Source: a virus
IMG/VR virus record: IMGVR_UViG_3300030390_001781
Coordinates: 5,356 to 69,355 of that record
Reading direction: 5' to 3' (one strand)
Length of the DNA: 64,000 bases
Below, one piece after another: positions 43,101 to 64,000 of this stretch. The translations under genes and the position numbers were made by a program. Every line of letters begins with the position of its first letter. Positions within the stretch are counted from its first letter, which is position 1. A model generated the notes under the pieces. The model was not told where the DNA came from, did no database searches, and was given only the letters and a program-made list of their open reading frames with translations.

Positions 43101-43110
43101 AATTAATTTT

Positions 43111-49627: not shown

Positions 49628-49792
49628 CTAATGTTCGGTTTCCTTTATGTCTTTACAATTACTTTCAACTGATTTTGAATTTTTCTCACAGTTTTTAATT
49701 TTTACAATTGATACAACTGATATTCCTATAGTTGTTATTGCTATTGTAAAAAGTAGTAGAAATAAATTTCTTCTAAATTTAATCAATTCCAT
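49628..49792 (-). CDS. small membrane protein (54 aa; not in ORF track)
   Basis: MELIKFRRNLFLLLFTIAITTIGISVVSIVKIKNCEK...; overlaps the ThiF stop. Confidence 0.45.
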   Translation of the reverse strand: MELIKFRRNLFLLLFTIAITTIGISVVSIVKIKNCEKNSKSVESNCKDIKETEH

Positions 49793-50529: not shown

Positions 50530-51205
50530 TTAATACGTTTTTAATTTTTTTACCACTATCAATATGATTTTGACTTTGTTCTTTTTCAGTCATTTCATAA
50601 AATAAGTTTGTATCAAATTGTAAACCTGACTGCAAATGATTGTTGAAATTAGAGTTCCAAAATAAATCATGAAGATTAGTTTTAAGCATTCTTAAACTTT
50701 TAAAAACATAATCTCTTCCTTTTAAAGAATTTCCCCAACATATTTTACCATCGTCATAAACATTAGGAGTAGCTAATCTATAAAGTTTAGTTTCTAAATG
50801 TCTAAATTTCTTATAAGCATAAACATAAACTTCATTACCGTCATATACCCAAAAAGTACTAGGACAATAATAAATTTCATTTTTAGTACCCATAGAAATT
50901 ATTCTTTTACTAGGTTTGTCTGTCCACGCTATTAAAGTGTTTTCAGGAGAATTATCTAGCCAAAAAAATGTATTAGGCTTACAGTCTACATTAATTGCAA
51001 TGTTTGTACCTTTTTCAACAACTAAATCTTTTAAGAAATTAATTGTTTTTATGCTAGCAGGCTTACCTACTAGCATTTTACCATTTTTATCTATATCTCT
51101 TACTTCTACATAATCATTACCTTCATTATTATTATAAAAAATCATTGTTTTTTTAGGTAATAAATTTTGTATTGGTTTAAATACAGCGTTTTCTAAATCT
51201 GCCAT
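50501..51205 (-). CDS. PRTRC system protein B (prokaryotic E2 family D)
   Basis: YVEVRDIDKNGKM, TKLYRLATPNVYDDGKICWGN, FWNSNFNNH. Confidence 0.85.
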   Translation of the reverse strand: MADLENAVFKPIQNLLPKKTMIFYNNNEGNDYVEVRDIDKNGKMLVGKPASIKTINFLKDLVVEKGTNIAINVDCKPNTFFWLDNSPENTLIAWTDKPSKRIISMGTKNEIYYCPSTFWVYDGNEVYVYAYKKFRHLETKLYRLATPNVYDDGKICWGNSLKGRDYVFKSLRMLKTNLHDLFWNSNFNNHLQSGLQFDTNLFYEMTEKEQSQNHIDSGKKIKNVLNALNKKVSL

Positions 51206-52203
51206 AAGTAATCTATTAATTTTTTAATGTATTGAACTGTTTTAAATTGTTTTGTAGTATTTACAATTCCATCTAAAGAGTACTCTTTTTTATAAATTAG
51301 TCTTTCAAATTCATAGTTATTCCAGTAGTCGTTTAAATGATGCTCATACTCTTTAAAAATCTCATCATCTTTAGGTAAAAGACACATATAATTTTGAAAA
51401 GGAATAATTTCTTCGTTTTCAATATCTTCTATTTTTGTAACTAAATCAGAGAATTTAAAATCATTACAACTATAACTGTTGTAATGATTAATCATTTTTA
51501 ACATGATTTTTGCTTGAGGACAATGATTAGGATTTTCCATTATGTAATCGTAATGCCAATCATTATTCCCTTTAACAAATTCATTTATACACTGCTGTAA
51601 TTTTTTATCATATTCTGCAATGTAATCAGATTCATTTATTTCTAAATCTAAATCTTCATTTTCATCACTAAGACAGTATTCTAAAGTCATACGAAAAGTA
51701 ACATTAGTATTAATAGTTGGATAGTCATACTTAATAACTAAACTTCCAATTACATACCTTATTATCTTTTTAAGATTTTCGTCTTCTACATTATCAATAC
51801 AATCAAAAGTAAAACAATTGCCAACCTCTGGTTCCTCATGATATAAAATAATTGATTTACCGTCAAAAGTTATATTGTCATAATTGAAATATTCTTTTTC
51901 TGATTTTAATAAATCATTTAAATTAGAGTTTAAAAAGTTGATTAACTGTTCTTGGTTAAAATTTGAAATACATTTTAAGTCTATATCAGTATATTTGTGT
52001 AACACACTTAATAAAGACAATAGAAGATTCTCAATTTTATCAATTCTAAATTTGTCTAATACAGAAATTACAGGGTAAAACGTGAGGTTCCTTTCGGAAC
52101 CTTTATACGTTTTTCTTCTTTTGACTCGTTTAGGATTCTTGAGCACATTTTTGTATGTAACGCATTGTCCAACATAACGCATCTTTTCTTTTCTTTTTTG
52201 CAT
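51193..52203 (-). CDS. PRTRC system protein F-like
   Basis: Between protein C and protein B; basic N-terminus and acidic helical body as in Bacteroidota PRTRC loci. Confidence 0.5.
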   Translation of the reverse strand: MQKRKEKMRYVGQCVTYKNVLKNPKRVKRRKTYKGSERNLTFYPVISVLDKFRIDKIENLLLSLLSVLHKYTDIDLKCISNFNQEQLINFLNSNLNDLLKSEKEYFNYDNITFDGKSIILYHEEPEVGNCFTFDCIDNVEDENLKKIIRYVIGSLVIKYDYPTINTNVTFRMTLEYCLSDENEDLDLEINESDYIAEYDKKLQQCINEFVKGNNDWHYDYIMENPNHCPQAKIMLKMINHYNSYSCNDFKFSDLVTKIEDIENEEIIPFQNYMCLLPKDDEIFKEYEHHLNDYWNNYEFERLIYKKEYSLDGIVNTTKQFKTVQYIKKLIDYLWQI

Positions 52204-52271
52204 ATCTCTAATACTTTTTCAACTACCCTTTTAGGTAATGATTCGTAAACCTTGTTAATTAAACTTTTCAT
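52068..52271 (-). CDS. small basic protein overlapping the protein F start
   Basis: ATGA overlap with protein C stop; 136-nt overlap with the next ORF. Confidence 0.4.
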   Translation of the reverse strand: MKSLINKVYESLPKRVVEKVLEICKKEKKRCVMLDNALHTKMCSRILNESKEEKRIKVPKGTSRFTL

Positions 52272-52474
52272 CCTTTTGTTCCTATTTTAGTTTCAAACGT
52301 ATATTCAATTTTGTTGTTCACTACGTTAGGTTCAGATAAATGAGAGTTTACTAACTCTGGATAAGAGTTTGCATAAAAATCCAAAACTTGTTTTAAAGTA
52401 AAGTTTTGATTAGGATCTGAAAGCATAAGTTCTTTGAACTTAAATACTCTTTCTAGTCTTTCTGTTTTAGCCAT
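52268..52474 (-). CDS. PRTRC system protein C (prokaryotic ubiquitin-like)
   Basis: LERVFKF...LSDP...VLDFYANSYPEL...YTFETKIGTKG. Confidence 0.92.
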   Translation of the reverse strand: MAKTERLERVFKFKELMLSDPNQNFTLKQVLDFYANSYPELVNSHLSEPNVVNNKIEYTFETKIGTKG

Positions 52475-53075
52475 TAAAATTAATTTTTTTGTATCTATCT
52501 TCCATCATTGATTCAATTTGCTCAGGAGTTAATTGTTTAGATTCAATAACTTTAGGCTCTGCTGGTGCTGTGTAAGCTTGTTCTTGAAATAAACCAACAC
52601 TTTTGTTGTTGTCATCAAGTTTTTGCTTACAAGACTTAGCTAAGGAGCTTTCTGAGTCAATCTTTAAAGCTTCATCAATTAACTTTTGTGCTTCTTTAAA
52701 AGATTTTTCTTCAATTAGTTTATCAATACCTTCTAATTTCTTTTTCACTTTTTCGTTAAGAGTTTTTTGTTTTTTCTTCTTCTCTTCTGCCATTTTTGAC
52801 TCTGCTTTCATCTTTTCTGCCGAATTGATAAAATCATTCATGTTGGTTGTTACTTGTGAAATTTTAGGTAATTGATTTTCTAAAGATTTACTTAACTCTT
52901 CTAATACACTTTGAACATCTGTACCTGTAACAATAAACGGTACAATTAACTTCGCACTTTCGTCTGAAGTTTTTGGCTTTGGCAATACTGAAACAGTAAA
53001 TTCATCGCCAATTTTCTTGAATGCTACAACAACATCAATGTTGTCTAGCTTTTCTAAAATTTGTGTAAATATCAT
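52467..53075 (-). CDS. PRTRC system protein E
   Basis: MIFTQI...TVSVLPK...DESAKLIVPFIVTG; TPR-like helices; SVGLF clamp-binding-like motif. Confidence 0.85.
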   Translation of the reverse strand: MIFTQILEKLDNIDVVVAFKKIGDEFTVSVLPKPKTSDESAKLIVPFIVTGTDVQSVLEELSKSLENQLPKISQVTTNMNDFINSAEKMKAESKMAEEKKKKQKTLNEKVKKKLEGIDKLIEEKSFKEAQKLIDEALKIDSESSLAKSCKQKLDDNNKSVGLFQEQAYTAPAEPKVIESKQLTPEQIESMMEDRYKKINFNG

Positions 53076-53090
53076 AGTTTTAAATTTTAA

Positions 53091-53133
53091 TTATCAAGCC
53101 ACAATGGGATATACCCACTGTAGCTTTTGATAA
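53091..53133 (-). promoter_or_regulatory. motif stem-loop upstream of the PRTRC operon
   Basis: + ttatcaagccacaatggg-atata-cccactgtagcttttgataa. Confidence 0.75.
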
Positions 53134-54030
53134 TTAAGCGTAAACTAATTTAGAAATTTCACTAAATGCTTTGTTGTCTAATTTTTGACCTGAACCAATC
53201 ATTTTACTTTCCATTAAATCTTTATTTCCAGGTAAATCTCTATTAGTATAAGAGGTTACTCCTGAAAATAATCCCCATAAAGTTTGACCTTTTTGAGAAG
53301 ATTCTTCAGCAATACGAAGAGTTAAATTCTTTGCTTTGTTTATAGAATTTGTAGAATACTTTTCTCTCGCTTCTTCGCTAGTCATTTCTACATCAACACC
53401 TACTAAGCTTTTGATTAAGCGCTTAATATCGTTAGGTTTAGATTCTATATCATTCATTCTTGTAAAGGTTTCGTAAAGGCTTAATTCTGACTCTTTAAAG
53501 TCATCAATACCAAACATAATAGTGTCTATTTTTTCACGCATAGTTTTAGTATGTCTTACTTTATGAGCTAAATCTCTATAAGCTTTATGAAAAATATTAC
53601 TACAGCTAATAGTTTTGTTAGTCATTCCTAATCCTACTCCTGAACTACCATCATGACTATTTGTTATAGTTATGTATTTATCAATTTGATCGTTGTTAAG
53701 ACCAATATTCTTGATAGAGCCGCTATCAATTTGCATAAATACTTTACGACCATCTTGTAAAGCACCTCCTTTTACAATATCTCCACCTAATTTTGTGGCA
53801 ATTTCGTGAGTTAATTCTGCTAAATCCCAATTCTGAAATATTTCATAACTGTCTTTACAAGTCATAAACTCTTTGTCAATATCTGACCTACGAATAGATA
53901 AATAATTTGATTCAATCCCTTCTCTAGTGAAAAGATTTTCTTTTTTGACTTCCCAAAAAAGATTGTGTTGTTCTAACAAGTCCATTACCATTTGTCCTTT
54001 GTTTTCAACTTCGTTAATTTGATTTTCCAT
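53134..54030 (-). CDS. DUF932 family protein (phage/plasmid-like, TIGR03299)
   Basis: YEIFQN, GALQDGRKVF, TNSHDGS, CSN, RHT, TLWGLFSGVTSY. Confidence 0.88.
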   Translation of the reverse strand: MENQINEVENKGQMVMDLLEQHNLFWEVKKENLFTREGIESNYLSIRRSDIDKEFMTCKDSYEIFQNWDLAELTHEIATKLGGDIVKGGALQDGRKVFMQIDSGSIKNIGLNNDQIDKYITITNSHDGSSGVGLGMTNKTISCSNIFHKAYRDLAHKVRHTKTMREKIDTIMFGIDDFKESELSLYETFTRMNDIESKPNDIKRLIKSLVGVDVEMTSEEAREKYSTNSINKAKNLTLRIAEESSQKGQTLWGLFSGVTSYTNRDLPGNKDLMESKMIGSGQKLDNKAFSEISKLVYA

Positions 54031-54525: not shown

Positions 54526-55386
54526 TTAAAATATATATCTGATTTTATTCCATTTAATAATGCTATCATGAAGTTTTATAAACGATTGAATATAATCACG
54601 TTTTAAATTGTGTTCATATCTAATGTTTGTACCTCCATAGCTAGAAACTTTGCTTTCTTGGTTTTCTGGTGTCCATAACAAACTTTCTCCTTTTTTGTCG
54701 TTTGTAACATTTTTATAATGTTTTTTTTCGTTGTGAGTTAAAAAGATTACTTCGCATTTTACTTGGTCTTTGTAATCAATATAATCATTACAAAGTTGAA
54801 ATAAATACTTATAGTCTTTTAACCAATCAGGATAAACAACAACAGGACTAAAGTTTAAATGAACATCATATCCTGCATCAATAAAAGCGTTTACAGCTTT
54901 TATTCTATCAATAATTTTAGGTGTGCCTGGCTCAAGATAATCTGAAATCTTTTGAGGCATTAAGCTAAATCTAATTCTTACTTTACCATTTGGGTTATAA
55001 TTAATAAACTCAATAGGTATAATTTTAGTGGCTAGAGTAGCCATAGCTATAGGATGATTTTTAAAGAAATCAAAAATCTTTTCCCAATCGTGATACTTTC
55101 TATGCAAAGCAAAATCTTCATTACAAGCTATATCGTATGTCATATAGCTTTCATGAGTTTGATTAGGTTTGCTAGCATTAGCTACAAAGTAAGAATGATT
55201 GTTAATTTCACTTAAAATCTGATTAACGTTTTTAGAAACAGTTAAACCTTTTTCTAAATGTCGTTTCATATAACAATAAGTACAGTCTAATAAACAACCA
55301 TAACCAAAAGAAGGAGTAATATAATCACTACTCCTTCCTGATTCTCTTATTGTCATAGTCTTTCGGTCTACATATCCAACTATCAT
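54526..55386 (-). CDS. spore photoproduct lyase-like radical SAM protein
   Basis: YGCLLDCTYCYM (CxxxCxxC), ATK, RIRFSLMP, RIKAVN..IDAGYDVHLNFSPV. Confidence 0.82.
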   Translation of the reverse strand: MIVGYVDRKTMTIRESGRSSDYITPSFGYGCLLDCTYCYMKRHLEKGLTVSKNVNQILSEINNHSYFVANASKPNQTHESYMTYDIACNEDFALHRKYHDWEKIFDFFKNHPIAMATLATKIIPIEFINYNPNGKVRIRFSLMPQKISDYLEPGTPKIIDRIKAVNAFIDAGYDVHLNFSPVVVYPDWLKDYKYLFQLCNDYIDYKDQVKCEVIFLTHNEKKHYKNVTNDKKGESLLWTPENQESKVSSYGGTNIRYEHNLKRDYIQSFIKLHDSIIKWNKIRYIF

Positions 55387-55981: not shown

Positions 55982-56004
55982 AATTTATTTTTTAAAGTTA
56001 AACA

Positions 56005-56036
56005 TCAAGGCACAACGGGTAATCCCATTGTGCCTT
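56005..56036 (-). promoter_or_regulatory. motif stem-loop
   Basis: + tcaaggcacaacggg-taat-cccattgtgcctt. Confidence 0.75.
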
Positions 56037-56110
56037 AACTGAACTTTAAAAAACTACTAATGCTTAACTAGTAATGCCTTAAATTCTCCATTAGCTTGGA
56101 GAGTTTTATT

Positions 56111-56278
56111 TTAATCTTTTAAAACTTTAAATTCTGTAGATATGTGATCTGAAGAATCTAAAATAATATCTTCATCATGATATCTTTGACTTAAGATAAC
56201 ATTAGCTTCGGCTTCACTATTAGCTTCTACTTCAATAACTTTAGATAAAGTTTCAATTATTTCTACACTAAATTTCAT
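56111..56278 (-). CDS. DpnD/PcfM-like small protein (55 aa; not in ORF track)
   Basis: MKFSVEIIETLSKVIEVEANSEAEANVILSQRYHDEDIILDSSDHISTEFKVLKD*. Confidence 0.65.
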   Translation of the reverse strand: MKFSVEIIETLSKVIEVEANSEAEANVILSQRYHDEDIILDSSDHISTEFKVLKD

Positions 56279-56609
56279 CTAACAAATTTGTTTGATAAAA
56301 TTTATTAACTAACGCTTTTACTTTTTGAGATTGCATCTTTTTAAGATAAGCACCTCTAAGTATAGTTACAAGTAATTTTTCAAGATTTTGTTTTCTGTCA
56401 TCACCTGTATGAAAAGATATCCATTTGTTTCCAGTATCAAATTCTTCATAGTTACTAATACATTCTTGAATAATTATATGTTCTTGAACTTCATAAGTAT
56501 TTATACCAAGAGCCATATCTAATTCACGAATAAATTCATCTACAATATCATCGATTTGCTTTTTACATCGATCTAAAATTGCTTTTTCTAAATCTTTTAC
56601 GTTATTCAT
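56268..56609 (-). CDS. hypothetical protein
   Basis: 113 aa ORF. Confidence 0.55.
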   Translation of the reverse strand: MNNVKDLEKAILDRCKKQIDDIVDEFIRELDMALGINTYEVQEHIIIQECISNYEEFDTGNKWISFHTGDDRKQNLEKLLVTILRGAYLKKMQSQKVKALVNKFYQTNLLDEI

Positions 56610-56614
56610 AATTA

Positions 56615-56821
56615 TTAATTTATACAGATTTCATCAGCTTCATCTAAATCATAAGCTGAACTTCTTGAATCACCAATCTTAGTTATCATAGTTGGACTAC
56701 TAATAGTGTAATGCCAATTATTACCTTCAGGATCGCTAGCGTAGACTACAGGTAGTTCTTTAGCTTCTGGATTAGCTTTTAAAAAGTCATTTAAGCCTTC
56801 TACGTATTCTTCTAAATTCAT
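56615..56821 (-). CDS. hypothetical protein
   Basis: 68 aa; LPVVYASDPEGN motif. Confidence 0.6.
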   Translation of the reverse strand: MNLEEYVEGLNDFLKANPEAKELPVVYASDPEGNNWHYTISSPTMITKIGDSRSSAYDLDEADEICIN

Positions 56822-57081
56822 AGCTTACCATTTTTAAGTTCTACAGAATCACATTCCTTATCAGCAAATTTCTTTAGTTTCCATAATAATCCATGATTAA
56901 TTATACTTTCAAAATAATTTGCTCCCATAAAAGGTGTTTTTCCTTTAGCTTCTAAAGCTTTAACATCTTCCTTGTGTTTTTCATTAGCAATTTTTAATCC
57001 TTCTATAAGAATAAAAACTTCTAATCCATTAAGTAAGTCATTTTGTTCTAAAACAACTTCTTCATTTTTTTCTTTTACCAT
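56818..57081 (-). CDS. hypothetical protein
   Basis: Start reassigned to MVKEK, 17 nt below a motif copy. Confidence 0.55.
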   Translation of the reverse strand: MVKEKNEEVVLEQNDLLNGLEVFILIEGLKIANEKHKEDVKALEAKGKTPFMGANYFESIINHGLLWKLKKFADKECDSVELKNGKL

Positions 57082-57148
57082 AATAAATAGTTTTAAATTC
57101 AAAACACAAAGGGAAAAAGGCAGTCTTTAGCATAAGAGGTGATAAAAT

Positions 57149-57182
57149 GTAGGGCAATAGACATATCTGCCTATCACCCTAC
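57149..57182 (-). terminator. RNA hairpin / intrinsic terminator
   Basis: Minus strand GTAGGGTGATAGGCA-GATA-TGTCTATTGCCCTAC: 15-bp stem fully paired only with G.U on this strand, followed by ATTTTAT. Confidence 0.65.
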
Positions 57183-57203
57183 TACTATTTACTATGGTTA
57201 AAA

Positions 57204-57491
57204 TTATTTATACTTTTCTAAATAAAAATTATATGACTTATCTCCATAAATCATATAATAATATTCATAATTGTAATGTTTCTTGAATTGACTGTGAGTT
57301 AGTTTTCCAGAAAAATATTTATATTCATTCACAAAAAACATAGAGAAAAACATACATAAAGTTGATACAATAAAAAATATAAAACTTATTGTATATTCTT
57401 CTATTAATAATGCTTTCCAACTACTTATGTGCAAAACAATAAATAATATAAATGCTGATATTGCTGTATATATTGAAAATTGCTTTTTCAT
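57204..57491 (-). CDS. small 2-TM membrane protein
   Basis: Two hydrophobic segments, Tyr-rich tail. Confidence 0.55.
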   Translation of the reverse strand: MKKQFSIYTAISAFILFIVLHISSWKALLIEEYTISFIFFIVSTLCMFFSMFFVNEYKYFSGKLTHSQFKKHYNYEYYYMIYGDKSYNFYLEKYK

Positions 57492-57808
57492 AATCTGTTT
57501 ATTGAAGGAATGTAAATATCCATGTTAACTACTTGTTTGCCGAATTTACTACAAGTACACATTAATTTATCTCCTTTGATAAATATTTTGTGTTTTAAAG
57601 GTATTCCTGTTGCTTTATGTGTCAAAGGCTTTCCTGTCTTTGAACTTATCATATAGAAACCGTTTACCTTTCCCTTGTCGTTAAATATCAAAGATAGGTT
57701 GTGTTTAAAGTACTCCGTTAGAAGTCTATTGAATAGAACACCTGCTCTTTTTCTATCAAAAGATACCTTAATATCTTTTAGTTCTCTTAAATCTTTTAAT
57801 GTTTCCAT
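57488..57808 (-). CDS. hypothetical basic protein
   Basis: Start taken at METLK (TTTACTATG leader). Confidence 0.55.
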   Translation of the reverse strand: METLKDLRELKDIKVSFDRKRAGVLFNRLLTEYFKHNLSLIFNDKGKVNGFYMISSKTGKPLTHKATGIPLKHKIFIKGDKLMCTCSKFGKQVVNMDIYIPSINRL

Positions 57809-57857
57809 AGTAAATAGAATTAAATGTTTAAATAAAGAATTAACCAAAATTTTGTAA

Positions 57858-58139
57858 TCAAGAGATATTATCATCGTGTTTTTCTTTTACAATTCTAATA
57901 AACTCTTTCATTTCATCAGTATCGTCAATGTTTTCAGCATGTTTGAAAATAAGATTCAACAAATCTCTTCTAAAATTGTGTACACCTATTTGTTTAGTGT
58001 AAAAATCTCTTAAAAATTCTGCATTGACTATACTATCAGCCCTAAGATTATTAATCTCTGAGTTGATTTCTTCATCTTGAGTTTCTAACCTTGTTAGAAG
58101 GTCTTTAAGCTCAAAATAATGCTTTATAAATAACTTCAT
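57858..58139 (-). CDS. hypothetical coiled-coil protein
   Basis: Start taken at MKLFIK, 16 nt below a motif copy. Confidence 0.55.
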   Translation of the reverse strand: MKLFIKHYFELKDLLTRLETQDEEINSEINNLRADSIVNAEFLRDFYTKQIGVHNFRRDLLNLIFKHAENIDDTDEMKEFIRIVKEKHDDNIS

Positions 58140-58154
58140 AGTAAATAGTTTAAA

Positions 58155-58192
58155 ATCAAAGCACAAAGGGTAATAATCCTTTGCACTTTGAT
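58155..58192 (-). promoter_or_regulatory. motif stem-loop
   Basis: + atcaaagcacaaagggtaataatcctttgcactttgat. Confidence 0.75.
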
Positions 58193-58211
58193 ACAATCCA
58201 CAATTAAACAA

Positions 58212-59489
58212 TTAAATGTTGTAGCTATTTACCTTCTTTGCGTAATTAATAAGCAAGTTTATTGCCTCTAATTGAAATTCAGGTGTACAATCTCTGACAT
58301 CATATTCTAAATGAATATATTCTTCAATGATTGTATTTACTACATCATGTAAACCTCTTTCAAGTCCTTTTTCTGACAATACTATTTGATTATCCTTGTG
58401 ATTAGCATAACCTAATATTCTTGAATTAGAAAAATTACCTACAGCAATATCAAATTTGTTAGGCAATTTACATTCAGCTAAGAAATTTTCAGCCTCATGT
58501 ATAGTATTCATTTGAAGTTGACTAGGTTTAGATACAACTCTGTACTGAATACCTCTATCTTTATCAAATCTTAAATCTGCTAACTTTTCATTACTAGTTA
58601 ACTTAGAACTAAGAAAAGAATAAAGACTTTCTGGAAGAAAAGTATATCCTGTTACTTCGTTTACACTTAACAAAGATATTAAACCTGTTGGTTGTACATT
58701 AATCTCGTTACAAACTTCTATAAACTCTTTTGAAGGGTTAACTCCATAAGGTCTTTCAAATTCGTACTCTAAACTGCTAGAGATAAGATTAGTAAGAATA
58801 TTTTTAATAATATTTTTGTCTTTACACGTTAATATTATTTTCCATATTTCTCTAGTTACTTCCCAATTATAAACACAAACTCTTGACTCGTTTATACTAA
58901 CCTTTGGTATGTCATAGTTATATACAGATTCTTTGTTGGTTTCGTAACATTTGATTCCTTTTCTGTAAATAACAGTACTACCTTGTTTTTCATAAATCTT
59001 ACCATGTTCGTTTTCATAAATAACATGGTCTTCATCAGCAAAATACAAACTAAAGTCTTTAGTAACCATGTCTATAAGTTCATCAGTCAAACTAATATAA
59101 ATATGAGTTTTACCTTTAACTCCTTTGATTTTAGTAGTGCAATTTAACTCTGCATTACCTTCGTCTAAAGCATTAGAATAAAACTCTCTAATAGCTTGCC
59201 ATAGCTTCCATTCTTTACCCATTTTAGTAGTTATAGAAGTAGCTTCATTGTTAATGTGAATTACATTAAAGACTTGATCACTAAATGTTTCTTCTTTAGT
59301 CGATACAGATATTTCTTTCTCGCCTGAAAAAATTCTTACTGTGTGATTGTTTCTTAATAAATACGCTAAAGCATACTTATTGCCCGTTCCGAACTGTCCG
59401 ATAGTTTCATCGCCAGTCTTAGTAGATGCACCTACAAGAGTAAAAGCCTTGTAGTTAATCTCGTTGTCATTAGAAATTCTTAAATACAT
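58212..59489 (-). CDS. GHKL (HSP90/MORC-like) ATPase domain protein
   Basis: GASTK...IGQFGTGNKYA (G2 box) and AIREFYSNALDE (N box); C-terminal TIIEEYIH. Confidence 0.7.
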   Translation of the reverse strand: MYLRISNDNEINYKAFTLVGASTKTGDETIGQFGTGNKYALAYLLRNNHTVRIFSGEKEISVSTKEETFSDQVFNVIHINNEATSITTKMGKEWKLWQAIREFYSNALDEGNAELNCTTKIKGVKGKTHIYISLTDELIDMVTKDFSLYFADEDHVIYENEHGKIYEKQGSTVIYRKGIKCYETNKESVYNYDIPKVSINESRVCVYNWEVTREIWKIILTCKDKNIIKNILTNLISSSLEYEFERPYGVNPSKEFIEVCNEINVQPTGLISLLSVNEVTGYTFLPESLYSFLSSKLTSNEKLADLRFDKDRGIQYRVVSKPSQLQMNTIHEAENFLAECKLPNKFDIAVGNFSNSRILGYANHKDNQIVLSEKGLERGLHDVVNTIIEEYIHLEYDVRDCTPEFQLEAINLLINYAKKVNSYNI

Positions 59490-59635
59490 AATAAATAAAT
59501 TTAAAGTTCAAAACACAAAGGGAAACAAAAAGGCTAAATGTTAATTTTAGACTAAAAAATGCAGTCCATAACACCGTAGGTTATAATGCAAGTTAGTGGG
59601 TTATTTGACAAAAAAAAAGTAATAATTTTAAGTAA

Positions 59636-59675
59636 ATTCAAAGTACAAAGGGTGTTAACTCTTTGTACTTTGAAT
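59636..59675 (-). promoter_or_regulatory. motif stem-loop
   Basis: + attcaaagtacaaagggt-gtta-actctttgtactttgaat. Confidence 0.75.
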
Positions 59676-59676
59676 A

Positions 59677-59898
59677 TTAATAATCTAAGTTTTGATACCA
59701 TTGATATTCAATGTCTTCTTGTTCTTGACGCATTTGTTCTTCAAAGAAAGCATTTTCTATGTTACCTAATTTTTTCTTTTTAGGTTTACTTGAAGGTATT
59801 TGTGCATATTTTGCTAAATACTTAATTAAACGTATTAGTTGTTTTCTAGAACAACCGTCTAAGTTGAATTTCTGTTCATCAATTTGTAAAATCTCCAT
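59677..59898 (-). CDS. hypothetical early protein
   Basis: 73 aa, flanked by motif copies on both sides. Confidence 0.65.
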   Translation of the reverse strand: MEILQIDEQKFNLDGCSRKQLIRLIKYLAKYAQIPSSKPKKKKLGNIENAFFEEQMRQEQEDIEYQWYQNLDY

Positions 59899-59912
59899 AA
59901 TAATATAGTTTT

Positions 59913-59946
59913 AAAGTTCATAGCACATTGGGTGTGCTATAAACTT
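59913..59946 (-). promoter_or_regulatory. motif stem-loop
   Basis: + aaagttcatagcaca-ttggg-tgtgctataaactt. Confidence 0.8.
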
Positions 59947-59950
59947 AATA

Positions 59951-60241
59951 TTATTTTAACTCTTTTTTAGTTAGTTCCCATGAGTTAAATAATACAAATA
60001 ATGGTATAGTTCTTTTTAAGATTAATATTTCATCATCTGTTGGTTTGTTAGATTCATCTATATTGCCGTCATTACCTAATGGAGAATAATAGAATTTAAT
60101 TACCCTTTTGTTGATAATTGCAATACCGAAAAAGTGAGGTATTTTATAGATTTTATCATGAAGATGTTTATCAAGAATAAACATTTCACAACCGTCTGCT
60201 TTGATTTCTAACTTTTGCGTTTTGTAAATTTCAATTTGCAT
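59951..60241 (-). CDS. hypothetical early protein
   Basis: 96 aa, flanked by motif copies. Confidence 0.65.
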   Translation of the reverse strand: MQIEIYKTQKLEIKADGCEMFILDKHLHDKIYKIPHFFGIAIINKRVIKFYYSPLGNDGNIDESNKPTDDEILILKRTIPLFVLFNSWELTKKELK

Positions 60242-60254
60242 AATATTTTAGTTT

Positions 60255-60294
60255 AAAGTTCAAAGCACAACGGGTGTTGTGCCTTGAATACTTT
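60255..60294 (-). promoter_or_regulatory. motif stem-loop
   Basis: + aaagttcaaagcacaac-gggt-gttgtgccttgaatacttt. Confidence 0.8.
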
Positions 60295-60296
60295 TA

Positions 60297-61040
60297 TTAC
60301 ATTGCTGATTTGATAATCGCAGAGCCAATTTTACCTTGACTTCTAGGTGCTAGTTTTACCATAACTGTTGGGTGTTCTTGGTAAACTTCTGTAAGTGCTG
60401 TTCTGAATCTAGAAACTAAGTCTTCTATTTTAAGACGGTTTTCTAAAGTCCATACTTTCACTTCTACGCATTCATTAGCAAGATAATCTTTGCCTTTGAC
60501 TTCAAATACTAAACCTTCTTGGTCTGTATAGTCTTCTAACTTCATGTATTTGTTTAGAATTAAATCAAATGGAGAAGTCCATCTTGAACTATACTTTTCA
60601 GCAATTACTTTAAGAGTTTTAATGTAATCTCTTACAGTACTATAAGAAGCGTATGCTACTTGATTACCTCTAAGTAAAATAGAGATATTATCAGGTAATC
60701 TTACGAAGCTATCATCGCCTACAGTATCGCAAATCTTGTATAAGACTTGTTTATTATCATTGATTTGAGAATAAGAATGATACTGTATTTTTACAAGTGC
60801 GTCTGCGTCTTTTGGTACAAACCAATTTACGGCAGTTCTACTTGGCTCAGAAGCCAGTTCTTTGAAGTCATCTGCATAATCATTAAACATAGCGTTGATT
60901 ATATCTTCGGCTACATTTATATGCGTTGACGTTGTAGGAACTGTAGCATTAGCTTCTACATTTGTTTTTACGCTGTTGTTTTCAGCGTTTGCTTCAGCAA
61001 CTCCTTGAGTTACTTTTGCATTTTCAGTAATATTTGTCAT
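60297..61040 (-). CDS. hypothetical early protein
   Basis: Start taken at MTNITEN; flanked by motif copies. Confidence 0.65.
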   Translation of the reverse strand: MTNITENAKVTQGVAEANAENNSVKTNVEANATVPTTSTHINVAEDIINAMFNDYADDFKELASEPSRTAVNWFVPKDADALVKIQYHSYSQINDNKQVLYKICDTVGDDSFVRLPDNISILLRGNQVAYASYSTVRDYIKTLKVIAEKYSSRWTSPFDLILNKYMKLEDYTDQEGLVFEVKGKDYLANECVEVKVWTLENRLKIEDLVSRFRTALTEVYQEHPTVMVKLAPRSQGKIGSAIIKSAM

Positions 61041-61041
61041 A

Positions 61042-61070
61042 TCAAGGCACAAAGGGTGAATGTGCCTTGA
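61042..61070 (-). promoter_or_regulatory. motif stem-loop abutting a start codon
   Basis: + TCAAGGCACAaagggtgaaTGTGCCTTGA. Confidence 0.75.
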
Positions 61071-61116
61071 AAAGAAAACGAAATATCTGTACCAAATAAC
61101 AAAGGGAAATAAAGTC

Positions 61117-61200
61117 TTAGCAAAGATTAACATACATACTAAATGCTAATAAGATGGCTGTTAGTACAATGATTAATGCAAATCTGTAAATGTTATACAT
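61117..61200 (-). CDS. tiny single-TM peptide (27 aa)
   Basis: MYNIYRFALIIVLTAILLAFSMYVNLC*; ATG 20 nt below a motif copy. Confidence 0.5.
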   Translation of the reverse strand: MYNIYRFALIIVLTAILLAFSMYVNLC

Positions 61201-61215
61201 AACTATAAAGTTTAT

Positions 61216-61251
61216 AAAGTTCAAGACACATTGGGTGTGTCTTGATACTTT
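61216..61251 (-). promoter_or_regulatory. motif stem-loop
   Basis: + aaagtTCAAGACACA-ttggg-TGTGTCTTGAtacttt. Confidence 0.85.
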
Positions 61252-61472
61252 TAGCATACTTGTATTTTTACTTGTTGATACGTTAGTGTATTGCAATCTA
61301 TCCAATCGTGATAGTCATTTTTACTGTTGTCTATTACAGTTACGTTGTTTTTTGTATCAACAATTAATGTTAAATCGAAGTAGATTTCTGTTACGTCTTC
61401 TGCATAACTTGCTACTTTTGGTTTAACTTCTGTTTTAGGGTTTCTAAGTACTGCTTTGTTTACAAATGTCAT
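61251..61472 (-). CDS. hypothetical early protein
   Basis: 73 aa, flanked by motif copies. Confidence 0.65.
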   Translation of the reverse strand: MTFVNKAVLRNPKTEVKPKVASYAEDVTEIYFDLTLIVDTKNNVTVIDNSKNDYHDWIDCNTLTYQQVKIQVC

Positions 61473-61485
61473 AATAAATATATTT

Positions 61486-61529
61486 AAAGTTCAAGACGCA
61501 TTGGGAAACCCTAACACGCCTTATACTTT
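61486..61529 (-). promoter_or_regulatory. motif stem-loop
   Basis: + aaagttcaagacgcattggg-aaa-ccctaacacgccttatacttt. Confidence 0.7.
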
Positions 61530-61695
61530 ATGATTTAAGTGTAAACCATATAAATGCACCTGTTGACACACAAAGTGCTGTTACACAAGCTAAGAATTGA
61601 TAATGATTTAGATTGAAACGAGATATTGTCATTAATGTGTAAATACTAATTAATGCAAGTATAAGCGTTACAATTTTTTTGATAAAAATCAGCAT
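61528..61695 (-). CDS. small 2-TM membrane protein
   Basis: MLIFIKKIVTLILALISIYTLM...; flanked by motif copies. Confidence 0.6.
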   Translation of the reverse strand: MLIFIKKIVTLILALISIYTLMTISRFNLNHYQFLACVTALCVSTGAFIWFTLKS

Positions 61696-61710
61696 AATAT
61701 ATAATTTTAT

Positions 61711-61759
61711 AAAGTTCAAGACACAACGGGAAAAATAACAACTCGTTATGTCTTTAACT
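61711..61759 (-). promoter_or_regulatory. motif stem-loop
   Basis: + aaagttcaagacacaacggg-aaaaataacaa-ctcgttatgtctttaact. Confidence 0.75.
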
Positions 61760-61761
61760 AT

Positions 61762-61938
61762 TTATTTAGATGAAGTTAATTGAGTGAACGCCAGTTCACG
61801 ATCGCATTGTTCTGCAAATTGAGCAATTACTAAATCATCAATTTCTTTTTGTAGTTGTGGTTTACATGAAGTACAACCAAAGTTTGGCAAGTCTTTATCT
61901 TCATTTGGAAGATAGTTTGCTGTTTTACAATCACACAT
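61762..61938 (-). CDS. small Cys-rich early protein (58 aa; not in ORF track)
   Basis: MCDCKTANYLPNEDKDLPNFGCTSCKPQLQKEIDDLVIAQFAEQCDRELAFTQLTSSK*; ATG 18 nt below a motif copy. Confidence 0.65.
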   Translation of the reverse strand: MCDCKTANYLPNEDKDLPNFGCTSCKPQLQKEIDDLVIAQFAEQCDRELAFTQLTSSK

Positions 61939-61951
61939 AATTAATAGTTTA

Positions 61952-61982
61952 AAAGTTCAAGCCACATTGGGCTTGATACTTT
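61952..61982 (-). promoter_or_regulatory. motif stem-loop
   Basis: + aaagtTCAAGCC-acattg-GGCTTGAtacttt. Confidence 0.85.
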
Positions 61983-61984
61983 AA

Positions 61985-62263
61985 TTAGAAAGGCATATCA
62001 TCAGGAATTGGTTGACTATTTTCTGTTGATAGTTCTTGATAATACTCTTCATCAAATTGAAATGATTGTGCTGAATAAATTTCTTTGTCGATATTATTAT
62101 CGGCACAATACTTATCATATCGCTGAAGTAACGCTTTGTGTTCGCATATCATTTGTAAACATTCTGCGATACATTCTTCTTCAGCACATATTTTATTTTC
62201 AATATGAAAATCTTTTTCCATTTGCTCAATTGTTGTTTGAGCATACATTGTTAATTTTAGCAT
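61985..62263 (-). CDS. acidic early protein ending PDDMPF
   Basis: 92 aa, flanked by motif copies. Confidence 0.65.
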   Translation of the reverse strand: MLKLTMYAQTTIEQMEKDFHIENKICAEEECIAECLQMICEHKALLQRYDKYCADNNIDKEIYSAQSFQFDEEYYQELSTENSQPIPDDMPF

Positions 62264-62277
62264 GACTATAAGTTTAT

Positions 62278-62307
62278 AAGTTCAAGCCACATTGGGCTTG
62301 ATACTTT
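62278..62307 (-). promoter_or_regulatory. motif stem-loop (identical 30-mer to the 61953 copy)
   Basis: + aagttcaagccacattgggcttgatacttt. Confidence 0.85.
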
Positions 62308-62504
62308 TAGAATGGTAAATCTTCATCATCAATTTCGATTTCATCAATCGTAAGATTGTCATAATGATAGTCGTGATTAGATTCACAACAAACGAAAGTT
62401 TGTTCTTCCTCGAACATTTCAGGTGGTCCATATTGCACAAGACCGTCTGAGTCTAAATATTCAACGAAACCTAAATTCATAGCAATTCTTTCTCTGTTAG
62501 TCAT
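62307..62504 (-). CDS. acidic early protein ending DEDLPF
   Basis: 65 aa, flanked by motif copies. Confidence 0.65.
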   Translation of the reverse strand: MTNRERIAMNLGFVEYLDSDGLVQYGPPEMFEEEQTFVCCESNHDYHYDNLTIDEIEIDDEDLPF

Positions 62505-62518
62505 AATATAAAGTTTAT

Positions 62519-62556
62519 AAGTTCAATACACATTGGGAAATGTGTATTGATACTTT
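62519..62556 (-). promoter_or_regulatory. motif stem-loop
   Basis: + aagtTCAATACACATT-ggga-AATGTGTATTGAtacttt. Confidence 0.85.
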
Positions 62557-62557
62557 G

Positions 62558-62800
62558 TTAGAATGGATTGTTATAATCGTAAACCATTCTACACTTGCAT
62601 TTATGCGAGAAATGATACATTTCATTTTGTGCTATGCGTAAATTTTCTTGAAGATTTACACTTGTTTCTATACAAGTGTTATCATCATTATGAAACGCAT
62701 AACGTAATGTTGCTACTTCTGCAATAGACATAGCAAGTTCTGTTATTGATTCTTTAGTTAACCAATTAGCATTTTTCGCATTGAAATCTTTGTTAGTCAT
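62558..62800 (-). CDS. early protein ending YNNPF
   Basis: Start taken at MTNKDF, 19 nt below a motif copy. Confidence 0.6.
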   Translation of the reverse strand: MTNKDFNAKNANWLTKESITELAMSIAEVATLRYAFHNDDNTCIETSVNLQENLRIAQNEMYHFSHKCKCRMVYDYNNPF

Positions 62801-62814
62801 AATATATAAGTTAT

Positions 62815-62848
62815 AAAGTTCAATGCACATTGGGTGCATTGATACTTT
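62815..62848 (-). promoter_or_regulatory. motif stem-loop
   Basis: + aaagtTCAATGCAC-attgg-GTGCATTGAtacttt. Confidence 0.85.
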
Positions 62849-62849
62849 A

Positions 62850-63149
62850 TTACAACATACCTAATTGAATGTAATGATGAAGACAATTGAAATCTTTGAT
62901 ACCTTCATAACTATCATAGTTAAGGTCAATAACAAGTTTTACAAATCTGTCTAAATCATTACAATCGTAGCCACAAATTTCAGCTACGTCTACAAGTATG
63001 AAGATATTATCAAGATGTTCTTGATAATTGTCAAATGATAACGATACAACTTTGCTAGATATTAGCAATGGTTTTATACGTAAGTTCATATCTAAGCTTT
63101 TAGACTGAACTGCCTCAACAAATTCCTCGTAAGGATAATTACCTTTCAT
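62850..63149 (-). CDS. hypothetical early protein
   Basis: 99 aa, flanked by motif copies. Confidence 0.65.
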   Translation of the reverse strand: MKGNYPYEEFVEAVQSKSLDMNLRIKPLLISSKVVSLSFDNYQEHLDNIFILVDVAEICGYDCNDLDRFVKLVIDLNYDSYEGIKDFNCLHHYIQLGML

Positions 63150-63161
63150 AATAAATGATTT

Positions 63162-63200
63162 AAAGTTCAGAGCACATTGGGAAATGTACTCTGAAACTTT
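63162..63200 (-). promoter_or_regulatory. motif stem-loop
   Basis: + aaagttcagagcacatt-ggga-aatgtactctgaaacttt. Confidence 0.85.
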
Positions 63201-63448
63201 TAGAATGGTAAGTCATCAAATTCATCGGCTACTAAAGTAGTTTCTAATCTATGTTTACCATGATTAGGTTTAATGTTTGATAACTTAAAGTTAAATTTGT
63301 TAGGTTCATGAGAATACTCTAGAAGCAACATACTTAACGATTGGTTTAACCAATCTATCTTACCTGTACAATCATCACATTCCATACATGGATATGTAAC
63401 ATTATCATCAGGACAATACTGTCCATGTTTACAATCAATAAAACACAT
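63200..63448 (-). CDS. Cys-rich early protein ending FDDLPF
   Basis: Start taken at MCFIDCKHGQYC...CMECDDC. Confidence 0.6.
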   Translation of the reverse strand: MCFIDCKHGQYCPDDNVTYPCMECDDCTGKIDWLNQSLSMLLLEYSHEPNKFNFKLSNIKPNHGKHRLETTLVADEFDDLPF

Positions 63449-63470
63449 AATATATAAGTTTAAGTTAATA

Positions 63471-63500
63471 TTCAATGCACATAGGGAAATGTACATTGAA
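63471..63500 (-). promoter_or_regulatory. motif stem-loop
   Basis: + ttcaatgcacat-agggaa-atgtacattgaa. Confidence 0.8.
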
Positions 63501-63506
63501 CTTTGT

Positions 63507-63674
63507 TTAGTCAAGGTCATTGTCTATAAGCCATCTTTTAAATGATACTTGACAATTAACAGGACAATAAGAACAATATTCAAGATATTGCTTTATTAAT
63601 TCTTCTTGATAAGATTTACCGTCTTCATTTAAAGACGATAAATGTTTTTCACAATAAATACTTGCGTTACTCAT
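63507..63674 (-). CDS. small Cys-containing early protein (55 aa; not in ORF track)
   Basis: MSNASIYCEKHLSSLNEDGKSYQEELIKQYLEYCSYCPVNCQVSFKRWLIDNDLD*; ATG 24 nt below a motif copy. Confidence 0.6.
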   Translation of the reverse strand: MSNASIYCEKHLSSLNEDGKSYQEELIKQYLEYCSYCPVNCQVSFKRWLIDNDLD

Positions 63675-63697
63675 ATCTATAAAGTTTAAAGTTAATA

Positions 63698-63728
63698 TTC
63701 AAAGCACATTGGGTTACCAATTACTTGA
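63698..63728 (-). promoter_or_regulatory. motif copy with imperfect stem-loop
   Basis: + ttcaaagcacattgg-gtta-ccaattacttga. Confidence 0.7.
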
Positions 63729-64000
63729 CATTGTCAAATAAAATGACTAACTTCTTCGCTCTACTACGTTACTAAACGTTTTTTTGTCTTACACAAACGA
63801 TACAACCAAACATTGGAAATGTATATCGTACAAACGTAGGAAGATACATAGCTCGCTAGGAAGACATTGTGAAACGCTATCGAACATAGAGAATTGCTGA
63901 ATGTCAATCAAACCACATTGGGAAACAATAACAACAGAGAACTTAAGGGGGGGTATAAAGAAAAATTATTTTTTTAATTTTTATTTTATTAACAGACCTC

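Follow-up and report, generated by a model that had tools for sequence, protein, structure and literature searches.

Tiny proteins of at least six otherwise unrelated families, encoded on 23 related marine contigs or retrieved from protein libraries, carry one and the same short C-terminal tail, whose consensus D-D-L-P-F is identical to the tip of Flavobacteriales SSBs. Their putative early cassette genes form a hypervariable block adjoining the genome end in a crAss-like phage clade. The whole 69,355-bp genome of one of these phages was analysed, and the window, a stretch of 64,000 nt, corresponds to its positions 5,356 to 69,355. In bacteria, genome-maintenance enzymes are recruited centrally through the SSB tip. 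A shared SSB-tip end on unrelated tiny proteins would point to phage use of the tail to dock onto or block host enzymes, and we give about an even chance to the reading that, by means of this portable motif, variable early proteins take up the pockets with which genome-maintenance enzymes of the host dock onto SSB.

As originally noted, four of five consecutive ORFs in the window end in Pro-Phe (PF), namely the genes at 61985, 62307, 62558 and 63200, and the fifth (62850-63149) does not. The cassette genes of this array are as follows.

63507..63674, minus strand: cassette gene that opens the array, 55 aa, C-terminus ..DNDLD, no PF tail
63200..63448, minus strand: family D gene, 82 aa, net charge -7, tail ..DEFDDLPF
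62850..63149, minus strand: untailed cassette gene between tail-bearing genes, 99 aa, C-terminus ..QLGML
62558..62800, minus strand: family E/B gene, 80 aa, predicted helical hairpin, tail ..VYDYNNPF, a weak, non-acidic variant
62307..62504, minus strand: family A gene, 65 aa, net charge -16, probably largely disordered, tail ..IEIDDEDLPF
61985..62263, minus strand: orphan gene, 92 aa, net charge -13, predicted to be helical towards the N-terminus, tail ..SQPIPDDMPF (ATG CCT TTC TAA)

The most likely true starts are 63448 for the ORF 63200-63520 and the ATG at 62800 for the ORF 62558-62839. In the family D gene, the tail codons lie at 63203-63217 (context ..ADEFDDLPF) and the stop at 63200-63202; its protein is laid out as an N-terminal Cys-rich knuckle (..YCPDDNVTYPCMEC..), a variable acidic middle, HGKH and the tail. 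The family A tail ..IDDEDLPF was also found in L007, L008/9 and L028, and relatives of the family E/B gene have tails of the form ..YDD[LI]PF or ..YN[RN]PF.

No other PF ends were found in the genome among 141 six-frame ORFs of >=40 aa. In a greedy non-overlapping gene set of the whole 69,355-bp genome they make up 4 of 83 genes, for which the binomial probability is 2.9e-6 (fPro x fPhe = 0.0011). Enrichment of the C-terminal end in related phages, proposed as a check, was likewise observed among their cassette genes, where 5 of 28 ORF clusters have PF-ending members; one of these five contains two unrelated families, and the probability of 6 of 29 is ~1e-12. The proposed battery of tailed genes is dispensable, as their number varies from 0 to 4 across related genomes. 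The tail is absent from two of six family C members, the 70.7-kb relative L012 has zero PF genes within the 21 kb examined, and in the more distant relative L272 one of nine genes has a PF end. Small proteins of this kind are absent from FpV4, a crAss-like phage of Flavobacterium, in which a single 362-aa ORF ends in ..EDLPF.

The 34 distinct tails yield the consensus D(-5) D(-4) L(-3) P(-2) F(-1). P-F stands at the extreme C-terminus in 34/34, position -3 carries L in 29 tails and one of L, I and M in 31, position -4 is D in 22 and acidic in 25 (74%), and position -5 is D in 27 and acidic in 29 (85%). A hydrophobic residue at -3 together with acidic residues at -4/-5 is the general pattern, from which the E subfamily departs with N or R at -3. 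Its tails (..YNNPF, ..YNRPF and ..LRNRPF) have neither acidic residues nor the -3 hydrophobe, so that some PF tails are poor SSB tips. One relative ends in LPY instead of LPF. In the window, the description of the ends as acidic-Pro-Phe tails is accurate for DDMPF, EDLPF and DDLPF, the three of four that were counted as SSB-type acidic tips when an end in [LI]-P-F was sought, and inaccurate for the non-acidic NNPF, which fits an SSB tip poorly.

The match to SSB was found in the expected bacterial group. All seven SSB-like Flavobacteriales ORFs tested end in ..DDLPF and are PF00436, and Table 1 of PMC3991886 lists DLPF ends for the Flavobacteriia SSBs of F. psychrophilum and P. torquis. A primer-derived 24-mer of the Psychroflexus torquis ssb gave zero matches in genome contigs, and a degenerate pattern was used instead. 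Elsewhere, in a bacterial and a viral sample, most proteins with the DDLPF-type tail have ssDNA-binding folds: 72 complete ORFs of bacterial origin with a DDLPF end comprised 45 PF00436 and 17 DUF3127 proteins (split by Pfam; a local phmmer split was discarded because of overlapping sets), and 72 complete viral ORFs ending in DDDLPF comprised 22 SSB, 16 gp32, 6 DUF3127 and 4 DUF669 proteins. The SSB tip is described in PMC7145534 as nine residues long with at least 17 partners. Full-text searches of the literature gave no paper in which phage proteins other than SSBs mimic the SSB tip.

The interpretation of the tails as SSB-tail mimics gained ground through their conservation as protein sequence and their agreement with the SSB tip, and lost ground with the poor fit of NNPF and with the comparison to the phage's own SSB-like protein, said not to end in PF. 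That protein could not be traced: a six-frame PF00436 search of the genome was empty, with control genomes matched, and Pfam run on 30 ORFs gave no SSB-type family.

The bodies that carry the tails are indeed unrelated. The five window proteins have no mutual BLASTP match at E<=1e-3, and in 15/15 family pairs with the last six residues trimmed the hhalign probability was <=1.6%. Families were delimited by start refinement and tail-trimmed hhalign; BLAST clustering alone merges families A and D with the non-PF 99-aa family through read-through of the translated repeat and through a chimeric protein. The chimeric proteins P0002/L018 and P0019 have a family A N-terminus and a family D C-terminus, which means that tails can spread by recombination and that the families are not fully independent acquisitions. 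No Pfam or PHROG family was found for the window proteins at E<=0.01. A search of 5.8 billion proteins with the 61985-62263 protein, and a homologue search with the 62558-62800 protein, each returned only the query itself; as the search relies on shared 5-residue words, such self-only results are no proof of orphan status.

In families D and E/B, the tail is conserved at the protein level, on which the prediction had depended. Two library searches gave 21 distinct family D proteins, of which 19 have LPF at the end, the exceptions being one 48-aa fragment and one protein ending in ..EDDFAF. An alignment of 23 family D sequences has the terminal F as its sole invariant column, with L and P at least 90% conserved, and in the family E/B alignment P79 and F80 are invariant in 9/9. 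Library homologues that are <50% identical retain the tail.

It had also been considered that the shared end might be a DNA-level extension of the adjacent repeat. The corresponding intergenic elements are located as follows.

61939..61984, minus strand: intergenic element copy, in the sense form reading stop, (T)AAAGTATCAAG, hairpin and TTTAAA, with an ATG farther on
62264-62306, 62505-62557, 62801-62849, 63150-63199 and 63449-63506: more copies of the intergenic element

Genome-wide there are 20 copies in a single orientation, of which 16 fold to <=-7 kcal/mol. The hairpin upstream of the cassettes has one conserved and one co-varying arm; the 3' arm contains a conserved CCC-NN-TGTG-NN-TTGAAC, and the ATG follows 31-39 nt past CCC. 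According to the DNA-level explanation, CCATTCTAA would be kept as a part of the repeat, of an RNA structure or of a termination context, and the PF end would be a by-product. Most versions do read CCA TTC TAA, including three of the four window genes, and the 61985 gene ends in CCT TTC TAA, as had been stated. Of 27 unique PF proteins, 25 use TTC for the terminal Phe, compared with 17 of 77 internal Phe codons of the same genes (~22%) and 105 of 1025 genome-wide, and the AAGTATCA box is commoner at PF junctions (11/15) than at non-PF junctions (17/66). However, the synonymous variation proposed as a check was found in 23 distinct DNA versions: Pro is encoded by CCA, CCG or CCT, Phe by TTC or TTT, Leu by TTA or CTT and Asp by GAT or GAC, position -3 may be TTA, CTT, ATA or ATG, the stops are TAA, TAG and TGA, and the acidic residues at -4/-5 are kept through GAT/GAC/GAA changes. 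The tail is also retained with unrelated downstream DNA (TGA ttaatagta..), in the diverged homologues and, in L272, beside a different hairpin element. Conversely, the 17 non-PF junctions with the box come from seven clusters with other last codons, and the untailed 62850..63149 gene has the same downstream box (TTG TAA taaagtatcaatg), so that the box does not dictate CCATTC. As the tail survives synonymous changes, all three stops and different downstream DNA, the DNA-repeat alternative was rejected as the origin of the shared end, and a purely nucleotide-level explanation is considered very improbable. The TTC bias may reflect common descent through recombination, or a nucleotide- or translation-level constraint besides the protein one.

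Structure models place the tails on probably disordered ends, low pLDDT being a mere proxy for disorder. The family D model is a small knuckle plus helix, with pLDDT 53-59 over residues 50-82; the family E model has helices at 16-37 and 44-67 and pLDDT<50 at residues 75-80. Atlas models have a mean pLDDT of 0.48 for family A and of 0.60 for the 61985-62263 protein, which is predicted to be helical over residues 1-58. ESM Atlas look-ups gave generic helical matches only, with zero usable feature matches.

These features also bear on the possibility that the tailed proteins are miniature ssDNA-binding analogues of SSB that would recruit host enzymes to phage ssDNA. In favour of it, the viral DDDLPF tails lie mostly on ssDNA-binding folds of several unrelated kinds, the phage has no detected SSB, and the family D N-terminus resembles a Zn knuckle. 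The phage tails and the bacterial SSB tip share the same last five residues, a free C-terminus, a preceding acidic run and a probably disordered flank. Unlike SSB, the phage proteins lack a detected OB fold as well as a tetramer core, and they are acidic throughout (65-92 aa, net charge -2 to -16, pI 4.05-5.83 in the window), and a Pfam scan of the four at E<=0.1 gave no SSB or OB family. Binding to ssDNA is not expected, so that the tail would be presented off DNA. The predicted shapes, namely helical hairpin, knuckle plus helix or disordered chain, and the presence of up to four different such proteins per genome further argue against SSB analogues, which makes this possibility hardly credible. 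Established and presumed ssDNA binders among phage and bacterial SSB analogues (gp32-like, DUF3127, DUF669 and Phage_SSB) do resemble the present case in having a portable tail on unrelated bodies, and DUF3127 proteins of Flavobacteriales genomes carry an SSB-type tail. However, a genome usually has just one such analogue, encoded within the replication module, whereas the tailed proteins are tiny acidic ORFans, up to four per genome, in a hypervariable putative early block.

In the reading that we prefer, occupation of SSB-docking pockets, many cassette genes from the body-unrelated families would have acquired [DE]-[DE]-L-P-F-COOH on an acidic, probably disordered end that copies the tip of a host-type SSB. 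The tail would then seat each small protein in the pocket that receives the SSB tip on host enzymes of replication, recombination or repair. Acidic, unstructured members such as family A might act as competitive decoys that uncouple these enzymes from SSB-coated ssDNA, whereas in members with a folded body (families D, E/B and C) the tail might be an address tag delivering an inhibitory or modifying body. Early expression of the cassette genes, which this reading presupposes, is suggested by their position and by the cassette architecture.

The same three last residues might alternatively be a degron, by which early proteins are passed to a host protease (e.g. ClpXP) and are gone after the early phase. 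LPF stands at the C-terminus in 29 of the 34 distinct tails, and in the S. mutans report (PMC5143411) fusion of LPF, the last three SsbA residues, is enough to turn GFP into an in vivo substrate of ClpXP, with LDF, DPF and LPY tried as altered motifs; the LPF degron is described there for SsbA and SsbB. As presented in that report, recognition depends on the strain, does not occur in E. coli or other streptococci, could not be reconstituted from purified ClpXP and needs an unidentified factor, but does not need the acidic residues (PMC5143411). In the phage tails, the acidic -4/-5 positions are conserved although a degron would not require them, and IPF, MPF, RPF and NPF variants are retained. 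LPF recognition is known only from some S. mutans strains, with no known Bacteroidota precedent, and a degron is regarded as quite unlikely.

Another partner could lie in the phage itself: the acidic-aromatic tail might bind a basic patch of a phage hub (virion RNA polymerase, helicase-primase or recombinase are candidates) or, on the host side, the ssDNA groove of the SSB OB fold. Precedents exist for both. T7 gp2.5 and gp4 contact the T7 DNA polymerase through acidic C-terminal tails with a final Phe, T4 gp43, gp33 and gp55 have a common C-terminal clamp-binding peptide, and the E. coli SSB tip is able to fold back onto its own OB fold. Among the products of the phage are a DnaB-like helicase, a PDDEXK exonuclease and a Sak4-like AAA_24 protein, and no SSB of its own was detected. 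The T7 and T4 tails share with the present ones the logic that unrelated proteins compete for one pocket via a C-terminal peptide; however, they address phage hubs with other sequences, whereas here the peptide copies the tip of a host protein, agreeing at every residue, L(-3) and P(-2) among them, with the SSB tip of the host class. Moreover, L012 keeps the conserved early and replication genes yet has no PF genes in its examined stretch. Docking onto a phage hub or onto the SSB groove is therefore unlikely.

Judged by sequence, the phage is a marine crAss-like phage. Its MCP matches phrog_11589 (4e-46) and its portal phrog_6547 (7e-53), both crAss-type. In tblastn, the MCP is 25-29% identical to cr115_1, FpV4 and an Azobacteroides phage, and every one of the 81 records found was crAss-like, Flavobacterium or uncultured; the host probably belongs to Flavobacteriales/Flavobacteriia. 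Blastn of window positions 60000-64000 against cultured phages gave zero matches. An N4-like affiliation had been guessed from a giant ORF of 3360 aa (18263-28345), in which the search for a DxDxD-type motif of a giant virion RNA polymerase found ..SDADHDGDKVF.. at residue 2587. This ORF had zero matches in a PHROG search and its residues 1001-2100 zero matches in tblastn, and the N4-like affiliation was dropped after tblastn of the ORF and the crAss-type MCP and portal matches. A 425-aa phrog_8203 protein gave only distant Pseudomonas/Bordetella siphophage matches in tblastn and was uninformative on host or context.

The cassette hairpin elements, with their conserved and co-varying arms, share their architecture with the promoters of the phage N4 virion RNA polymerase, for which PMC4496689 describes host SSB as a needed activator. 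By analogy, the tails might form one half of an SSB-centred takeover circuit together with hairpin-promoter transcription, a speculative extension to which we assign a low probability. Early proteins with the SSB tip would strip host enzymes off SSB, so that SSB-guided repair nucleases, helicases or SSB-sensing defences would be disarmed and the host SSB pool would be freed for hairpin-promoter transcription, Sak4-type recombination and replication. The hypervariable bodies would then be an arms-race repertoire, each directed against its own SSB partner or defence system.

Ugi, phi29 p56 and N4 gp8, the last directed against the clamp loader, are small acidic proteins that inhibit host DNA enzymes early in infection. 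They resemble the tailed proteins in being tiny, acidic, early (as presumed here) and directed against host DNA metabolism, but act via a folded surface specific to one target, and we know of no use of an SSB-tip motif among inhibitors of this type. If the docking reading is true, free copies of the SSB tip could at once inactivate or divert a dozen or more host enzymes by compact and general means, and they would be a bacterial-virus example of short-linear-motif mimicry. A non-OB protein with the host SSB tip would then flag host-takeover or anti-defence genes among phage ORFans, and the L/I variant of the tip would be an extra clue for host prediction. The early genes of crAss-like phages are almost wholly uncharacterised, and the tail would give them a first testable function. 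The tailed proteins would also provide natural peptides and proteins to probe SSB-partner pockets, which are under pursuit as antibacterial targets (PMC5872125, PMC8341153).

Among 24 sequencing runs listed, no RNA run with the stretch was found. The stretch was recovered in contigs of all four public DNA runs examined (from three studies) with 0-1 differing letters, except for two short unlike pieces, and the PF tails were identical throughout these contigs.

The window covers bases 5356-69355 of a virus record of 69,355 bp and has a G+C content of 29.7%. Its right end carries a row of tiny genes on the minus strand, four of which encode proteins with a C-terminal Pro-Phe (PF), and one gene without this ending lies between them.

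61985-62263, minus strand, orphan gene, 92 aa, ends ..PIPDDMPF (terminal Phe codon 61988-61990)
62307-62504, minus strand, family A gene, 65 aa, ends ..IDDEDLPF (terminal Phe codon 62310-62312)
62558-62800, minus strand, family E/B gene, 80 aa, ends ..DYNNPF (terminal Phe codon 62561-62563)
62850-63149, minus strand, gene without PF, ends ..QLGML
63200-63448, minus strand, family D gene, 82 aa, ends ..DEFDDLPF (terminal Phe codon 63203-63205)

Longer open reading frames of the family E/B gene (up to 62839) and the family D gene (up to 63520) are read-through of the upstream repeat. The four endings of the original prediction (DDMPF, EDLPF, NNPF and DDLPF) were re-derived from the window ORFs, and they are the only PF endings among 141 six-frame ORFs of at least 40 aa and in a greedy set of 83 genes (P = 2.9e-6 for 4/83, with fPro x fPhe = 0.0011). 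The proteins were also correctly described as otherwise unrelated, as BLASTP among the five window proteins gave no mutual match at E<=1e-3, and profile-profile comparison of the family bodies with the last six residues removed gave probabilities of <=1.6% in all 15 pairs. The stretch was reproduced in contigs from four of four public DNA runs (three studies) and is therefore not an assembly accident.

A conserved element lies 3' of every small gene and 5' of every presumably early cassette gene (for example 61939-61984, 62264-62306 and 63150-63199, minus strand). On the sense strand, the order is stop codon, (T)AAAGTATCAAG, hairpin, TTTAAA and then the next ATG; the 3' arm of the hairpin is the conserved CCC-NN-TGTG-NN-TTGAAC, and the ATG follows 31-39 nt past CCC. 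The core CCC-NN-TGTG-NN-TTGAAC-TTTAAA was found in window 56000-64000 on the minus strand and in the related loci L007-L036. There are 20 copies in the genome, in one orientation throughout, of which 16 fold to -7 kcal/mol or better; in 16 of the 20 the core forms the 3' arm and the 5' arm co-varies. Two copies lie within an overlap of 153 bp between the record ends (one mismatch; window side 63848-64000), which may represent either direct terminal repeats or the joint of a circular assembly and which holds one element-core copy without hairpin.

The same array was present in 30 related loci (23 distinct contig names, including contigs recovered repeatedly by different scans or collections), and all relatives came from marine metagenomes. 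Across these loci the PF ending is found on several gene families.

C-terminal tails of the cassette proteins
Family A: ..IDDEDLPF
Family D (Cys-rich): ..[FVM][DM]DDLPF, ..TADALPF, ..TEDDLPF
Family E/B: ..VYDD[LI]PF or ..YN[RN]PF
Family C: ..TPD[KV]LPF
Window orphan: ..PDDMPF
49-aa protein: ..DDDELPF
LPY variant, one protein: ..EEGLPY

Enrichment of the tail in related phages had been suggested as a check, and PF-ending members occurred in 5 of 28 clusters of ORFs ending just upstream of the element, one of the five being two unrelated families. All PF genes fall within a hypervariable region bounded by the genome end and a conserved gene of 228-248 aa, and their number per genome ranges from 0 to 4 (window 4, L028 4, L031 3, L024 3, L009 1, L015 1), with no PF gene in the 21 kb covered of L012. 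Among 432 six-frame ORFs of at least 30 aa in FpV4, a Flavobacterium crAss-like phage, no such small PF proteins were found. The battery characterises this marine clade rather than crAss-like phages in general. The sole SSB-type ending of FpV4 (..VEDLPF) belongs to a 362-aa replication-module ORF, gp49, annotated as hypothetical protein beside exonuclease VIII (L038:12787-13875, record 62787-63875), which may be the SSB analogue of that phage.

It had been considered that the shared ending is a DNA-level extension of the adjacent repeat, but five lines of evidence from sequence comparison favour conservation of the tail at the protein level. Synonymous change, named beforehand as informative, was present: the tail codons occur in 23 different DNA versions (Pro CCA/CCG/CCT, Phe TTC/TTT, Leu TTA/CTT, Asp GAT/GAC), followed by all three stop codons; the rare Pro codon CCG (13/539 Pro codons) occurs in three tail versions. 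The AAGTATCA box is also located 3' of 17 non-PF junctions in 7 clusters, where the last codons are TGC, GAG, TTG, TGG, GTT, TCA, AAA and others, and at four PF junctions the downstream DNA is quite different. In L272, which is less closely related (44% identity in family D), the hairpin element at these positions differs and lacks the CCC core, and ..YDYLPF is kept before it. Homologues retained the tail: library searches with family D gave 21 distinct proteins with identity down to below 50%, of which 19 end in LPF, the exceptions being one 48-aa fragment and one ..EDDFAF; the search profile included the tail (5 of 85 positions), which introduces some bias. In the family D alignment (23 rows) the terminal Phe is the sole invariant column and exceeds the cysteines in conservation, and in family E/B both P and F are invariant in 9/9 with variation at positions -3 and -4. 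In family C the tail is found in 4/6 and other endings in 2/6, and the tail therefore behaves as a module that is gained or lost. Tails also travel by recombination, as the chimeric proteins P0002 (L018:167-442) and P0019 join a family A N-terminus to the C-terminal half and tail of family D. A family A gene in L020 (sense 7-282) has a one-base difference that places a stop before ..LPF, with ccattctaa out of frame; either the tail was lost naturally or the base was misread in sequencing.

TTC encodes the terminal Phe in 25 of 27 unique PF proteins (the four window genes and L007-L036), compared with 17/77 internal Phe codons in PF genes and 105/1025 Phe codons genome-wide. This hints at some constraint on the last codon beyond the protein level; possible reasons are accurate decoding of a critical residue, the context of termination, or recombinational shared descent. 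That the PF ending as such has a nucleotide- or termination-level cause is nevertheless very improbable given the five lines of evidence.

The consensus over 34 distinct tails is D-D-L-P-F (D at -5 in 27, D at -4 in 22, L at -3 in 29, P and F in all 34), which is the tip of Flavobacteriales SSBs. SSBs of Flavobacterium psychrophilum and Psychroflexus torquis end in DLPF, and the gammaproteobacterial SSBs of the same table in DIPF (PMC3991886, Table 1). A scan of bacterial genomes for DDLPF-stop gave 80 loci, about half of them Bacteroidota by record title, and the 72 complete ORFs included 45 PF00436 SSBs and 17 DUF3127 proteins; tested singly, 7/7 Flavobacteriales candidates were SSBs and 3/3 other candidates DUF3127. 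Complete viral-contig ORFs ending in DDDLPF (n=72) comprised 22 SSB, 16 gp32-like, 6 DUF3127 and 4 DUF669 proteins. Judged by these families, the tail specifically marks ssDNA-binding proteins, and its portability from one fold to another is already known. In Streptococcus mutans, only three LPF-ending proteins are reported in the genome, two of them SSBs (PMC5143411). A role of the LPF tail as a degron appears distinctly unlikely. DUF3127 is a second small family ending in ..DDLPF in Flavobacteriales and other Bacteroidota (L152-L231), and single further proteins with the DDLPF end were a 510-aa DnaB helicase (Avrilella, L182), a DUF927/primase-type 770-aa protein and an OLD-like TOPRIM protein.

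The bodies have no Pfam or PHROG family match at E<=0.01 in the four window proteins, and all are acidic (net charge family D -7, family E -2, family A -16, orphan -13). For family D, a small knuckle formed by a beta-hairpin (residues 10-19) was predicted at low confidence, together with a single helix (pLDDT 53-59 for residues 50-82), for family E a helical hairpin with a low-confidence tail, and Atlas models reached mean pLDDT of 0.60 (orphan) and 0.48 (family A). The proteins do not look like DNA binders, and that they are true mini-SSBs is hardly to be expected. The SSB-like protein that had been ascribed to the phage itself was not recovered, as a PF00436 six-frame search of the genome and Pfam scans of 30 ORFs found no SSB-type protein. 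It is unlikely that the tail docks on a phage hub or the OB fold of SSB.

From the sequences, mimicry of the SSB tip with docking on host enzymes is the favoured function of the tails, with about an even chance of being right. The tail would dock into the pockets where host enzymes read the SSB tip, which has at least 17 partners in Escherichia coli (PMC7145534); unstructured acidic members might act as decoys, and in members with a folded body the tail might be an address tag. An arms-race repertoire fits the diverse, hypervariable and dispensable bodies better than a single housekeeping role. The motif and its portability are known, and its proposed use here would be new: full-text literature searches gave no description of SSB-tip mimicry by non-SSB phage proteins, and the nearest published item selects phage RecT partners by means of host SSB tips (PMC13490951).

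The capsid and portal proteins have matches among crAss-type PHROGs, and tblastn with the capsid protein gave 81 matches of 25-29% identity in crAss-like phages; FpV4 is among them, as are gut crAss phages and a phage of Azobacteroides. The host is likely a marine Bacteroidota, most simply one of the Flavobacteriia. For the 3360-aa ORF at 18263-28345 (plus strand), an N4-type virion polymerase was considered but gained no PHROG or tblastn support (no PHROG match; no tblastn match of residues 1001-2100 in cultured phages). At residue 2587 it carries ..SDADHDGDKVF.., of the same kind as the aspartate motif reported in the crAss-like virion-packaged polymerase that transcribes early genes (bioRxiv 10.1101/2020.03.07.982082), and its probable identity is a highly diverged virion RNA polymerase of the crAss type. 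The intergenic element may serve the virion RNA polymerase as promoter and/or terminator; the phi14:2 study reported no motif shared by the upstream regions of early transcripts. The virion polymerase of phage N4 reads hairpin promoters with conserved and co-varying stem bases and requires host SSB as activator (PMC4496689). As in N4, a hairpin element with conserved and co-varying arms precedes every putative early gene here, in a phage in which no SSB was found and whose putative early proteins bear the SSB tip. An SSB-centred takeover, in which the tails would clear host partners off SSB, is a long shot; if true, SSB-guided enzymes or defences would be disarmed and SSB reserved for phage transcription, recombination (Sak4-like AAA_24 protein) and replication.

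The replication module contains a PRTRC-like cassette (49783-54030, minus strand), adjoined by a radical SAM gene, and two further genes were annotated in the window.

49783-50529, minus strand, ThiF
50501-51205, minus strand, prokaryotic E2 family D
52467-53075, minus strand, PRTRC system protein E
53134-54030, minus strand, DUF932
54526-55386, spore-photoproduct-lyase-like radical SAM protein, adjoining the cassette
42124-42723, DnaJ-domain protein
42723-43130, YopX protein
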